The notes: a model not told the origin generated them from the letters alone. A stretch of 32,000 nt of DNA from Endozoicomonas arenosclerae (GCF_001562015.1 NZ_LASA01000143.1:15942-47941); one strand, 5' to 3'; counted from the first letter of the stretch, positions 20,676-28,320 are shown. Translations and numbers: made by a program.

Positions 20676-20723
20676 TCAAAACAACCCCATTCGCACATCA
20701 ATCAGGGTATTAAAATCCAGATT
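20676..20723 (-). pseudogene. Displaced remnant copy of the last 15 codons plus stop of polB
   Basis: tcaaaacaaccccattcgcacatcaatcagggtattaaaatccagatt is 43/48 identical to the true polB 3' end at 25903-25950. The reverse complement reads NLDFNTLIDVRMGLF-stop versus NLDFNTLIDEQMGLF-stop. Confidence 0.8.
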
Positions 20724-20742
20724 AAGGCTATTCGAAGATTCC

Positions 20743-21120
20743 TTAGTTGCTATAAAAAGTATCTATTTGGTCACAAAATTCAGTGGCCTTTAAACCAAGT
20801 AGTGGCTTCCATGAGGATTTATCTAGCCCCCTATAATTCATCATTCCTTCAAGCAACTCAGTAGTGATTAAAGCTTCAACTTCAGAGTCTCTATGCTCTA
20901 TAAACTCTTCAATCAGAGAAAAAAGTTCATCAATACTATCATAATTTTTGTTCAGAATATTTGAAGGAATAAGCTCTGAGAGAGTTACAATTACAATATT
21001 AAACATGAATATTCCATCTAAAGAAATCCAATCATTTGCAGTTGCAACGAGACGTTCTCTATATCCTAGATATACTTTACAAATCCTGTTAAGCATTTCC
21101 AGTTTATTTATTTCTTTCAT
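20743..21120 (-). CDS. Hypothetical small helical protein, immunity-like (125-128 aa)
   Basis: AT-rich ORF with no recognisable catalytic motif or signal peptide. Acidic helical segment ELFSLIEEFIEHRDSEVEALITTELLEGMM. ATG 21120 is preferred over GTG 21129. Context is an immunity-gene array. Confidence 0.45.
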   Translation of the reverse strand: MKEINKLEMLNRICKVYLGYRERLVATANDWISLDGIFMFNIVIVTLSELIPSNILNKNYDSIDELFSLIEEFIEHRDSEVEALITTELLEGMMNYRGLDKSSWKPLLGLKATEFCDQIDTFYSN

Positions 21121-21170
21121 TGCTAGCACTTACCTTTGTTTAAACTTCAAAGCATCTTCAAGATCTTTAA

Positions 21171-21293
21171 TTAAATTTCCAGTACTACAGAGGGTAATTT
21201 GAAGTAGGAAGCGCCTTTTTTGCTTATTTCTTTATCCCAAAAAAGCTCTGAAACACTTTTATCTAACAAAAATGCAAATATTTCATGGTAACC
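21171..21293 (-). pseudogene. Start-less fragment of a paralogue of the 22338-22805 gene
   Basis: 81 nt (21192-21272) are 78/81 identical to 22644-22724. The fragment translates to ..HEIFAFLLDKSVSELFWDKEISKKGASYFKLPSVVLEI-stop, versus SIFLLDKGVSELFWDKEISNKGASYFKLPNDCW in the intact gene. It has no start codon and a premature stop. Confidence 0.75.
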
Positions 21294-21405
21294 TCACTTA
21301 GGCTTATTACATTCTTTACAGTTTTTATATTCCTCTAACGGATTTTTGGACCTTTAGGTGCGCTTCAGAAGTAAGTTTGACGTCTGTGGTGAGAGGGAGT
21401 GAGAG

Positions 21406-25077: not shown

Positions 25078-25081
25078 CGGA

Positions 25082-25297
25082 TTAGGTTATATCCATTCCT
25101 ATTATTGAGCCTTCCTCATCAAAATCCAGATAAATATCTGGCCCTTTGTAATCATTGATCAGGTCGGCCAAACGCAGCTGTTTTCTTACTAAACCAGATA
25201 TAGCAACCTGAGGATGTTTAGGAAGATACAAATATGCAACTTCTGGGTCGCTTGAACTGACTTTAAGCTTAATTTTTTGTCTTGGCATTACAATCAC
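25082..25297 (-). CDS. DUF2283-like small protein (68-71 aa)
   Basis: PEVAYLYLPKHP....IYLDFDEEGSIIGMDI matches the DUF2283 pattern (D-x-LY-x-x-L ... -x-D-x-D-x-x-G-x-x-x-G-x-E-I). GTG 25297 overlaps the upstream stop (GTGA); alternative ATG at 25288. Confidence 0.6.
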   Translation of the reverse strand: MIVMPRQKIKLKVSSSDPEVAYLYLPKHPQVAISGLVRKQLRLADLINDYKGPDIYLDFDEEGSIIGMDIT

Positions 25298-25779
25298 TTT
25301 GCTATCAGTACTGTCTTAAGTTTCGCTGAACCATTTTTACTAATTTGATAAACGGCCAACCCATCAAGCCACTGCTCCAGCAAGAACAGAAGCTGGAAAA
25401 CCATGCCGGTTCGAGGTGTGTCGCTCAAATTCTGGAAAAATGCAGTTCTTTGTTCAAAAGCTTCTTGCTCTTCCATCCATCGCCAGTAGAGTGGCAGAAC
25501 AATGGCCAGGCTATCCGCCTCTGAGGCATGCAAGGTAATGAATTGCTCATACGCATGAATAGCCTGATCCGTTTGGCCACGGTCTTCCAGAAGAAAGATG
25601 TGACTTAATGGGTCAACCCAGTCAATGCTCTTTTCTTTGGCGAGCCGAAGCATGGATTCACGACTGTCGGCTTGTTCATAAGAAAGCCAGGGAACAGGTG
25701 CAGCCTGGAGTGCAGCGGTCATCAGCAGAAGTGTCGTACAAAGAAAAAGTCGACCAATAGGGAGAAACACTGCGCTCAT
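25294..25779 (-). CDS. Secreted/periplasmic helical protein of unknown function (161 aa)
   Basis: Signal peptide MSAVFLPIGRLFLCTTLLLMTAALQA-AP. The rest is predicted helical and Trp/Glu-rich. First gene after polB. Confidence 0.55.
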   Translation of the reverse strand: MSAVFLPIGRLFLCTTLLLMTAALQAAPVPWLSYEQADSRESMLRLAKEKSIDWVDPLSHIFLLEDRGQTDQAIHAYEQFITLHASEADSLAIVLPLYWRWMEEQEAFEQRTAFFQNLSDTPRTGMVFQLLFLLEQWLDGLAVYQISKNGSAKLKTVLIAK

Positions 25780-25902
25780 AATTACAGCTTTTTTTGTAAC
25801 GTGACTGATCAGTTAATGAGCGCTTAAAGGTAGATCAGCTGTGAGGGACTGCAAATTTTTGCGTATTAAAATAGACACTCGTAATGAATGGTTATAAACA
25901 GC

Positions 25903-28320
25903 TCAAAACAACCCCATTTGCTCGTCAATCAAGGTATTAAAGTCCAGATTGATGAAAGGCAGTACACCATCCGCAACCGGTTTTAGCTGCTTGTCGATGT
26001 AATGCTGGTAATCAATGGGACTCCTGAGGTATTCCAACGGTTCAGGCCCATTCACCGTCATCACGTATTGCACCCAGCCCTTTCTCTGGTACTTCAGTGA
26101 CTTTCCCAATGATTGATTGATCTCGTCAGCCATTCTGGCGGCTCGCACTTGAGGTGGCACATTCTTTACATAGTCTTTCAGATTACGACGCAACCGCTTT
26201 CGATAGACAAGCTTATCATCCCACTCTCCTGCCAACGTTTTCTCTACTGTTTCTCTGACCAAAGCCTCAGGTGATTGATCAGCAAAAACGAGAGTAAACA
26301 ACTCTGTCTGAAAATACTTGGCCAGTGCCGTCCAATCAGAACGCACAGTCTCCAGCCCTTTGAAAACCAGTTCCTGCCCGGAAGAAGTCGTTTTAATACC
26401 GGCATAACGCTTTTTACTGCCCGTGTCCGCACCTCGAATCGTAGGCATCAGGAAGCGTCGATAGCAGGTTTCAAATTCCAGCTCGAGAGCAGATTCCAGC
26501 TGGAAGTCACCCTTTAGCTTTTCATCCCAGCGCTGGTTAATCATTTTCTCCAGTTTTTTGCCCGTAGTTGCCGCCTGATCATCGGAATAGGTTTCATTCA
26601 AGAGCACAAATGTGGAATCCGTGTCCCCATAAATCACCTGATAGCCCTGTTCTTCAATCCAGCGAGCTGTCTGTTGCATGATCTCGTGCCCTCTTATAGT
26701 GATGGAACTGGCCAGACGCGTATCGTAAAAACGACAGCCTCCAGAGCCCAAAACACCATAGAAAGAGTTCATGATAATTTTGAGGGCCTGGGAACGAGCT
26801 GCATCCTTCTGCTTTTTGGCTTCATCCCTCTGGGCCCACAGGGAGGCAATGATATCGGGTAGAAAATGTTTTTCGCGGGAGAACATCCCCCCCCTGAAGC
26901 CGGGAATGGCATCATCGGGCTCAGCCAAACCTTCAACCAGGCCCATGGGATCAATTTTGAAAGTCTTGATGATAGAGGGATACAGACTTTTGAAATCCAG
27001 CACGATGACATTGCGGTAAAGCCCGGGGATCGAATCCATGACATATCCGCCAGGACTGGCCAACCCTCCCCCTTCAGGCAAGTTGGGCGCTATGTATCCG
27101 GCCCGATGCAACCTGGGTAAATAAAGATTGGTAAAGGCCTGAACAGAACCGCCCATGCGGTCCAGCTCCAATCCGGTTAGATGACTGCGAAGCCTGAGAT
27201 AATCCAGAATATTGGTGTGCTCAAAAATAGCTTCAACCAATCGGCAGTCTTCCAGGTTGTATCGGGCCAGCTTTTCCTTGTTGTGGCGAAAGTCATGATT
27301 GATGATCGCCATCCGGTTATCGACATCCTCTGTTGCCTTACCTCGCCCTAACAGGGCTTGGGCTACCGATTCGAGACTGAAACTATCGAATTGATAAGTA
27401 GCTGCCTTGAGAGCTTCTATTCCATCAATCACCATGCGGCCGGGTATGGTTATAAAACCCTGACCACTGTCCCCCCTGCGATTTCGCCAGCTCGCGGCCT
27501 GTCCACCCCTACCCAACCTGAGCTTCATACCATGACGATCAGCACGCTTGAGTAACAGACGAAAATCAAAATTAATAACGTTCCAGCCAATCACGATGTC
27601 CGGGTCCAGCGTATGAAGCACCTCTTCAAAAGCTTCCAGGAGGGCTTTCTCATGATCAACCCACTGAATCCACTCCACGGGCTCCTGGTTGCCCACCATG
27701 ATCACAAGACCATAATCACCACCTGAGAGCCCGATGGAATAGAGTTCCCCTCTCTCAGAACACTCAATGTCCAGAGAAATCACTTTGAATGAAGGATTAA
27801 ACTCTGCGGGTCGGATACGGGCATTCTGATACTCGACATAGCCTGACCTTGAGCGTGGCTGGCCTGTAAACTCGAGACCGCCATAGACAAATCGCTCCAT
27901 AAGATAGCGATCTGCCAGCCTGAAATCAGACTCAAACAGTTCCAGCCCTTTGGCTCTGAGATAATCGTGGATTAAGAAGGACTGGGCTGTATCCTTGCTG
28001 TAGACCGCAGAGATGGCGTCATGCTGAAAATCCTTCAGGGTGAGAGGTCGAACTTCAGCGTCAGCAAACGCTTTCAGAAAAGCGTGTTGCAGGGGTTCAA
28101 ACAAAGCCGTCTTAACAAAACAAACCGGACGCTCACCCTGAATCACTAATCGAACCGGACCGGATTCTGTTACCACCCAGAGAACAATCTCGGTCTGCCC
28201 CTTCTTGTCATGGCTGTGCCGGCTCAGTAGAAAACCTTTTTGCAAGGGTTCTCTTTTTTGTAAGGGCTCAATAGCAGGCAAGTCAGTTCTCAAACGTAAT
28301 GTGTCCAACAGTTTATGCAT
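25903..28320 (-). CDS. polB: DNA polymerase II (family B)
   Basis: Exo I DIECS, Exo II WNVINFDFRLL, motif A DFKSLYPSII, motif B KIIMNSFYGVLG, motif C YGDTDS. ATG 28320 (MHKLLDTL..., 805 aa) is preferred. The 84-codon upstream extension in the track is Cys/Ser/Arg-rich and unlike PolB. Confidence 0.9.
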   Translation of the reverse strand: MHKLLDTLRLRTDLPAIEPLQKREPLQKGFLLSRHSHDKKGQTEIVLWVVTESGPVRLVIQGERPVCFVKTALFEPLQHAFLKAFADAEVRPLTLKDFQHDAISAVYSKDTAQSFLIHDYLRAKGLELFESDFRLADRYLMERFVYGGLEFTGQPRSRSGYVEYQNARIRPAEFNPSFKVISLDIECSERGELYSIGLSGGDYGLVIMVGNQEPVEWIQWVDHEKALLEAFEEVLHTLDPDIVIGWNVINFDFRLLLKRADRHGMKLRLGRGGQAASWRNRRGDSGQGFITIPGRMVIDGIEALKAATYQFDSFSLESVAQALLGRGKATEDVDNRMAIINHDFRHNKEKLARYNLEDCRLVEAIFEHTNILDYLRLRSHLTGLELDRMGGSVQAFTNLYLPRLHRAGYIAPNLPEGGGLASPGGYVMDSIPGLYRNVIVLDFKSLYPSIIKTFKIDPMGLVEGLAEPDDAIPGFRGGMFSREKHFLPDIIASLWAQRDEAKKQKDAARSQALKIIMNSFYGVLGSGGCRFYDTRLASSITIRGHEIMQQTARWIEEQGYQVIYGDTDSTFVLLNETYSDDQAATTGKKLEKMINQRWDEKLKGDFQLESALELEFETCYRRFLMPTIRGADTGSKKRYAGIKTTSSGQELVFKGLETVRSDWTALAKYFQTELFTLVFADQSPEALVRETVEKTLAGEWDDKLVYRKRLRRNLKDYVKNVPPQVRAARMADEINQSLGKSLKYQRKGWVQYVMTVNGPEPLEYLRSPIDYQHYIDKQLKPVADGVLPFINLDFNTLIDEQMGLF

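Follow-up and report, generated by a model that had tools for sequence, protein, structure and literature searches.

The DNA considered here, referred to as the window, is a stretch of 32,000 nucleotides from Endozoicomonas arenosclerae (GCF_001562015.1, NZ_LASA01000143.1:15942-47941) in which polB, the gene for DNA polymerase II, is followed by an AT-rich island of small genes. The island begins at the polB stop codon and is bounded on its far side by a second copy of the last 48 nucleotides of polB. The most probable origin of this arrangement, held here with moderate confidence, is a homology-anchored and recombinase-free displacement of the polB 3' end that carried in a partly decayed toxin/immunity locus.

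The two copies form a direct repeat of 48 nt that is identical at 43 positions, a pair whose expected chance occurrence in 32 kb is about 6e-12. Read on the minus strand both give NLDFNTLID(EQ/VR)MGLF followed by a stop codon, the peptide of the distal copy being NLDFNTLIDVRMGLF-stop. The C-terminal end of the polymerase, which is 81-84% identical in amino acid sequence to Endozoicomonas polB, is a beta-clamp-type motif, QMGLF, and D(E/G)QMGLF is kept in all functional polB genes compared. Similarity ends sharply upstream of the 48-mer and, on the 3' side, at the stop codon; the longest identical run between the copies is 16 nt, and the repeat is polB coding sequence without palindromic arms. 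Only two copies are present within 19000-29000 (a 10-kb scan), and the 48-mer is the polB terminus in every relative examined. A preliminary description of this DNA had reported the recurrence 5.2 kb away in the same orientation, with 43 of 48 positions matching and the in-frame stop kept in both copies, all of which is confirmed. The check that it proposed on the repeat limits shows no similarity beyond the 48-mer on either side, and the dispersed repeat unrelated to polB that would have spoken against it was not found in the 10 kb scanned. To judge from its reading frames the distal copy is a non-coding remnant.

The interior of the island has a GC content of 0.407, compared with 0.514 in the nap flank, 0.493 in polB and 0.505 in the right flank. 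It holds ten minus-strand open reading frames (ORFs), two of which (24781-25077 and 24016-24774) belong to a single gene that an in-frame TAG interrupts, so that the earlier account of ten co-oriented ORFs richer in AT than their flanks holds good. The same is true of its statement that the island lacks any integrase, transposase or tRNA: Pfam and NCBIfam scans found no integrase or transposase domain in the ten island ORFs and no recombinase in the other window ORFs scanned. No tRNA, tmRNA or Rfam family was found, and a tRNA/tmRNA target or other structured RNA was rejected on these grounds.

In E. numazuensis the locus (L170) is colinear with window positions 9943-20397, which comprise a UvrD-like helicase, a solute-binding protein, napFDABC and DUF2374, and again with 25902-32000, which comprise polB, hmgA, fumarylacetoacetase and a glutathione S-transferase. 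Only 16 nt separate the DUF2374 stop from the polB stop, there is one polB terminus, and the small lipoprotein gene that faces the distal copy in the window is absent. At the level of sequence comparison the E. numazuensis locus is therefore demonstrated to be the empty site, with the insertion placed precisely at the polB stop. The preliminary description had predicted an empty site with one polB terminus, and this part of the prediction stands, but polB was expected to be followed directly by the lipoprotein gene and instead abuts DUF2374.

A second lineage gives a similar picture. The nap contig of an Endozoicomonas metagenome-assembled genome (MAG; L167) is syntenic as far as the N-terminal part of the lipoprotein gene, conserved there after DUF2374, and the polB contig of MAG_seacave_125 (L001) holds a remnant of its C-terminal part 67 nt past the polB stop, on the opposite strand. 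These contigs, taken from two separate MAG assemblies, dovetail over 105 nt (99% identity), the overlap being a palindromic repeat. In this sister lineage nap and polB appear to be convergent neighbours without the toxin island, with the lipoprotein gene split between them, and the lipoprotein ORF belongs to the ancestral nap-side flank; a homologue search with the ORF found no other species. A partly palindromic repeat of about 125 nt at the MAG contig ends (L001 12786-12910, L167 12224-12373), with a weaker copy at L002 7497-7532, probably belongs to a dispersed hairpin repeat at which assemblies break. The more distant relatives ALC020 and ISHI1 share the hmgA side of polB and have arrays of paralogues of about 400 amino acids (aa) after the polB stop instead. 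These are tandem arrays of at least seven paralogous proteins converging on polB (L002 12613-22366 in ALC020, L069 9151-18990 in ISHI1), with signal peptides, conserved N- and C-termini (…PLDYLYTLFN), variable middles and no Pfam domain. The survey of polB neighbourhoods that had been recommended thus shows downstream cargo to differ among relatives.

We infer, from few sites, that the resident tail survives as the displaced and decaying distal copy and that the insert brought the proximal copy with it, because the ancestral flank adjoins the distal copy, its synonymous sites match those of the syntenic relatives and it carries unique non-conservative changes. The outer flank of the distal copy resembles the flank that follows the polB stop in the MAG (local score 36 against 19.9 +/- 2.4 for shuffled sequences, z = 6.7; tblastn E 5e-4). 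The five positions at which the copies differ comprise three synonymous and two non-synonymous sites. At the synonymous sites the distal copy matches E. numazuensis in three of three cases and the MAG in two of three; at two of the three the proximal copy agrees with ALC020/ISHI1 instead of the nap-syntenic relatives. The non-conservative changes, E->V and Q->R, are found in the distal copy alone.

The footprint recurs outside Endozoicomonas. A total of 156 polB loci from genomes and metagenomes were scanned for displaced tails; the metagenomes yielded no close Endozoicomonas relatives. Displaced polB tails lie downstream of polB in four Microbulbifer-type contigs (L014, which has two tails, L017, L083 and L084), which amounts to five independent inserts at the polB stop. 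Their cargo is unrelated and includes SBP56 with a membrane protein; a sulfatase, an Old Yellow Enzyme (OYE) reductase, a hydrolase, an epimerase and a MerR regulator; an aspartyl protease and an amidase; and small ORFs. The empty site is represented by M. flavimaris (L018), where the end of polB and the adjoining flank are colinear with L017's distal copy and the flank next to it. No recombinase was found in the Microbulbifer-type inserts, hence in none of the six polB-tail-flanked inserts when the Endozoicomonas island is included. The retained tail measures 48 nt in the window and about 79, about 102, about 125, about 136 and at least 150 nt in the Microbulbifer events.

As a control, 840 other gene tails in the same loci were compared, among which isolated tail duplication occurs once, as against four loci for polB, the remaining matches being tandem paralogues. 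In the sole non-polB case (L151 12916-13033) a 494-aa membrane-protein ORF has its last 39 residues repeated 215 nt downstream, with 90% identity, which may represent a frameshifted or duplicated gene end. Between the two tails of L014 there is a fragment (13702-13881) of a gene for a 307-aa carboxypeptidase-like protein, whose intact version (17582-18516) stands 5 kb further on and which adjoins polB in the empty-site genome; the fragment indicates an additional rearrangement at the hotspot. A tentative generalisation, possible but short of probable, is that the polB 3' terminus serves repeatedly, and without a recombinase, as a docking point for foreign genes in no fewer than two gammaproteobacterial families, the Endozoicomonadaceae and the Microbulbiferaceae. 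In a more radical version a trans-acting system may target the sequence that encodes the clamp-binding tail of Pol II.

Recombination within polB can also be followed between strains. A second E. arenosclerae assembly, GCA_001562005.1, covers window positions 27420-20191 in three contigs, and the two assemblies differ by 26 substitutions, all of them in polB between 26107 and 27357 (about 2% over 1.25 kb). From 26106 to 20191 (5.9 kb), a tract in which the two tail copies lie together with 480 nt of nap flank, there are zero differences. Elsewhere in the window GtrA differs at 3 of 416 residues between what are apparently the two assemblies, the source of the second sequence being inferred, and exact-sequence look-ups of NapB, NapC and the FAA hydrolase in the second assembly gave no match. 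The identical tract looks as if it was exchanged recently, one crossover falling in the 3' region of polB. The second assembly additionally contains two insertion sequences inside the island that are absent from the window and both of which break contigs. One is of IS200/IS605 type, with a Y1 transposase motif and a terminal hairpin, and lies in the DUF2947 gene (L081 4890-5174, L163 1-162; window ~22532). The other is of IS1595 type and lies at the 3' end of the DUF7674 gene (L163 1943-2216, L164 571-899; window 20753-20760), where an 8-bp overlap suggests target duplication.

The cargo (Table 1) is best read as a horizontally acquired, decayed polymorphic-toxin locus with an orphan-immunity array, made up of a crippled toxin, DUF7945 and five further immunity-type genes, a character that the preliminary description did not recognise. 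The two halves of the putative toxin gene are in one frame with TAG and two codons between them. The related protein P0002 has TGG (Trp) at the TAG position and extends at least 220 residues further upstream, and therefore the toxin gene of the window is both 5'-truncated and amber-interrupted. In several phyla, Rhs, PT-HINT, WXG100 and pre-toxin-TG proteins have C-terminal domains homologous to its last ~100 residues, and the Endozoicomonas proteins P0002, P0003 and P0018 share its middle domain (71-88% identity) with tips that are different or identical. Such a common middle domain with alternative tips is the signature of a polymorphic toxin. A delivery or secretion domain was not recognised: the N-terminal residues are missing, the TAG intervenes and there is only a weak Pyocin_S match. 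The AlphaFold2 (AF2) model of the C-terminal domain has a predicted local distance difference test (pLDDT) score >93, and it has no fold match in the PDB and no Pfam family.

A DUF7945 gene directly follows a homologous toxin domain on an Ochrobactrum plasmid (L165 3001-4145) and in Nocardioides (L166 3001-4079), and because this adjacency is kept, the gene at 23619-23999 is likely to encode the cognate immunity protein of the toxin. The toxin C-terminal domain (24016-24354) and DUF7945/SCO4402 appear to form an uncharacterised toxin/immunity family that is represented in Gamma- and Alphaproteobacteria and in Actinobacteria. In MAG_seacave_125 (L162) a toxin with the same middle domain and another tip (P0018) is directly followed by a homologue of i143, a 143-aa immunity candidate, and then by a CdiI_3 gene fragment, and DNA homology links window positions 21674-22310 with L162 539-1172. 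Given this order after a toxin with another tip, the window would have kept those immunity genes after replacement of its own toxin tip, so that at least one extra immunity gene can be regarded as the leftover partner of a replaced tip. The 81-nt fragment in the array is a remnant of an earlier module. Overall the island is most plausibly a stock of immunity genes against the toxins of related bacteria, with residual toxin activity at best. Promoter and terminator scans gave nothing above shuffled controls. At L162 1270-2550 the MAG toxin/immunity array meets a convergent Y-family polymerase gene (IMS/DinB-type), 79 nt separating the end of the array from the 3' end of the gene; this gene was checked for tail duplication and none was found.

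Table 1. Features of the polB locus and its island, with positions counted from the first nucleotide of the window (CDI, contact-dependent growth inhibition)
Feature	Position	Strand	Remarks
polB, DNA polymerase II	25903-28320	-	Pfam DNA_pol_B, DNA_pol_B_exo1, DNApolII_N, DNApolII_insertion; likely start Met at 28320
Putative recombination breakpoint between two E. arenosclerae assemblies	26106/26107		157 nt upstream of repeat, inside polB
Proximal repeat copy, working polB terminus (15 codons + TGA)	25903-25950	-	Retains conserved DEQMGLF
Inserted island, interior	20724-25902		GC 0.407; absent from colinear E. numazuensis locus
161-aa ORF, predicted signal peptide, orphan	25294-25779	-	Sole match among 5.8 billion proteins is E. 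arenosclerae itself
Small DUF2283 protein	25082-25297	-	Pfam E 3.8e-5
Predicted toxin gene, upstream fragment	24781-25077	-	Ends at in-frame TAG (24781-24783); same frame as 24016-24774
Predicted toxin remnant, 252 aa	24016-24774	-	Conserved middle domain (weak Pyocin_S-like match) and ~100-aa C-terminal toxin domain
Likely cognate immunity gene, DUF7945 / SCO4402	23619-23999	-	Pfam 1.2e-20, NCBIfam 1.5e-39; gene order
Second DUF7945 paralogue, orphan immunity candidate	23089-23502	-	Pfam/NCBIfam scans
DUF2947 protein, immunity-type candidate	22338-22814	-	Pfam 2.4e-16
Putative orphan immunity gene, 143 aa (i143)	21876-22307	-	82% identical to L162 542-970
CdiI_3 family CDI immunity protein (predicted)	21406-21804	-	Pfam 1.5e-21
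81-nt fragment	21192-21272	-	96% identical to 22644-22724 within DUF2947 gene, 1.45 kb away
DUF7674 protein, last gene of array	20743-21129	-	Pfam 1.2e-6
Distal repeat copy, probable displaced ancestral polB terminus	20676-20723	-	Stop codons and no start codon upstream
Small lipoprotein-like ORF, LAGC lipobox	20402-20671	+	Converges on displaced polB tail, 4 nt apart

It is proposed that incoming DNA carrying a polB 3' region followed by cargo would have paired with the resident polB by homology, and that its non-homologous far end would have been joined illegitimately at a point 48 nt upstream of the stop codon of the resident gene. Such an event would be of the type termed homology-facilitated illegitimate recombination, the alternative being the circular-intermediate variant proposed for rhs tips. 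In either case polB would now end in the imported tail and the resident tail would have been moved 5.2 kb downstream, where it is decaying, and the whole block could later have spread within the species through double homologous recombination, with one exchange in polB and one in the nap flank. The 48 nt of homology probably mark the non-homologous join as a by-product and were probably not the substrate of recombination, since their longest identical run is so short and the strain breakpoint lies further inside polB. The same two observations point away from the earlier suggestion that the island was captured through the short polB-tail homology. A recombinase-free event is favoured because the footprint recurs at polB, because the breakpoint lies in polB and because the repeat is a poor substrate. 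The same displacement logic can be seen inside the cargo, in the common toxin N-domain with different tips, in the retained i143/i132 pair and in the 81-nt module fragment.

Several observations weigh against homology-anchored displacement or soften it. The donor genome was not found and the illegitimate junction is therefore not open to inspection, and in a sliding-window comparison of the polB 3' end the identity of the last ~170 nt tilts to ALC020/ISHI1 only non-significantly. Later deletions could account for part of the variation in tail length among the Microbulbifer inserts. The available contigs stop short of the right-hand end of the identical tract, so that the tract shows recombination in polB and not a transfer specific to the island. 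A scan of 152 polB-downstream regions for tyrosine-recombinase motifs gave no match, but it also gave no true positive in 2.7 Mb. The immunity functions, finally, are assigned from family membership and gene order.

An unlikely, though credible, alternative is that the island is what remains of a site-specific integrative element, or of an integrase-less element mobilised in trans, whose attP mimics the polB 3' end and whose integrase has been deleted or lies elsewhere. Direct repeats of a gene 3' end, a low-GC island and an empty site in relatives are the expected footprint of such an element, and the working gene is restored through its stop codon, as for e14 at icd. Loss of an integrase is moreover conceivable in an island whose decay includes a truncated toxin, a nonsense codon and module fragments. 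This explanation is weakened by six independent polB-tail-flanked inserts without a recombinase, and by an inner boundary of the displaced tail that differs in all six, even if later trimming is possible. The cargo consists of accessory genes of the ordinary chromosomal kind and lacks genes for excisionase, replication or transfer, and the strain identity tract starts 157 nt inside polB and not at the repeat. Similarity to phage or plasmid DNA was likewise not found, save for the toxin domain on a Cronobacter plasmid, and a phage or plasmid origin was rejected. Of the two mechanisms considered in the preliminary description, homologous capture with 3'-end displacement accordingly fits better, and classic site-specific integration is disfavoured by the recombinase count and by tails that range from 48 to ~150 nt.

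It is improbable that the repeat was made locally at insertion, by staggered-break repair or a replication template switch, so that both copies derive from the resident polB. The copies are direct and abut the insert on both sides, and the end of similarity at the stop codon would be explained merely by the insert starting there. Known transposition or casposon-type duplications are, however, far shorter, and the Microbulbifer tails are variable and reach ~150 nt. At two of three synonymous sites, furthermore, the proximal copy has the state of another Endozoicomonas lineage and the distal copy that of the syntenic one, which fits two origins better. An integron-like or Xer-dependent (IMEX, integrative mobile element exploiting Xer) cassette array, in which a trans-acting recombinase would use a site in the polB tail, is largely refuted and scarcely credible: small co-oriented AT-rich ORFs without an internal recombinase do resemble chromosomal integron arrays and IMEXs, but the integron was rejected because Pfam and NCBIfam scans of the window ORFs found no intI gene and there are no attC-like inverted repeats between the island ORFs, the Xer/dif element because the dif consensus has no match within 3 mismatches, and the repeat is coding sequence devoid of palindromic arms.

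Two features at a distance from polB may be recorded. A 781-aa ORF at 9452-11797 (-) has no Pfam match, and its homologues in L167 and L170 (65-79% identical) are recorded with PF03421 (Acetyltransf_14, YopJ-type acetyltransferase). Between this ORF and a nucleoside transporter gene lie about 600 nt (8830-9450) without long ORFs and with a GC content of ~0.34.

Many hotspots of horizontal gene transfer (HGT) contain no mobility gene, and the first entry of DNA into them is inferred mostly from statistics. The polB locus combines a readable founding scar, an empty site, a breakpoint in the anchor gene and independent repeats in another genus, and therefore homology-anchored illegitimate insertion becomes directly testable at a defined locus. 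What would be new here is that a displacement of the kind proposed for rhs and type VI secretion system (T6SS) loci probably took place at a housekeeping gene. If the polB terminus is indeed a docking point, one-sided island birth would in general leave a minable scar in the form of displaced housekeeping-gene tails, and events could be counted and dated genome-wide; a genome-wide search for orphaned core-gene 3' ends is suggested as a way to find them. The cargo in turn would provide an example of an orphan immunity stockpile in a genus of sponge and coral symbionts, as well as a candidate pair of an uncharacterised toxin domain and DUF7945 immunity protein that is conserved from Proteobacteria to Actinobacteria.

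Site-specific elements that duplicate the 3' end of a protein gene include e14 and phage 21 at icd, and ICESt1/3 with their integrase-less derivatives, the cis-mobilisable elements (CIMEs), at fda. As in e14/icd and ICESt1/3-CIME, the gene 3' end at polB is duplicated, the ORF is restored and relatives have the empty site, and CIMEs too are without recombinases. Unlike e14/icd and ICESt1/3, the polB inserts lack an integrase in six of six cases, have no fixed crossover position and carry no element-type genes. Core genes that recombine, often with roles in recombination or repair themselves, flank the HGT hotspots that have no integrase (PMC5635113), and the polB locus resembles these hotspots in that a variable region lies between conserved core genes, without mobility proteins and with a breakpoint in the flanking core gene. 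The double homologous replacement at such hotspots leaves no duplication, whereas the one-sided event at polB left a duplicated and datable gene terminus.

Orphan cdiA-CT/cdiI modules were reportedly described by Poole et al. in 2011. Displacement of rhs C-termini leaves core fragments of variable length without a recombinase and has been ascribed to homologous recombination by way of circular intermediates (Jackson et al. 2009, PMC2935791). The polB locus resembles rhs/cdiA tip displacement in that downstream of an intact gene lies a displaced 3' fragment keeping a conserved upstream piece of variable length, there is no dedicated recombinase, and homologous recombination is the proposed driver. 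In both, repeated events build arrays, as in L014, and the cargo of the window itself consists of such toxin/immunity modules. The displaced end is, in contrast to rhs/cdiA, that of a housekeeping DNA polymerase and not of a polymorphic toxin. The non-homologous toxin tips with immunity genes that characterise rhs/cdiA are absent at polB and present only inside the cargo. The old and new polB tips encode nearly the same peptide, so that polB is not diversified and the displacement is a by-product of importing downstream genes.

In the T6SS clusters of Vibrio cholerae, sequential displacement of effectors has produced orphan immunity arrays, for which the proposed route is homology-facilitated illegitimate recombination (Kirchberger et al. 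2017, PMC5361080). The window differs from these arrays in that it contains no T6SS genes, the toxin is 5'-truncated and the outer anchor, polB, is unrelated to the toxin system. It resembles them in that ancestral immunity genes (i143/i132) would have been kept downstream while the toxin tip differs from that of the MAG relative, and in that a conserved upstream gene would serve as the homology anchor and the other end would join illegitimately.

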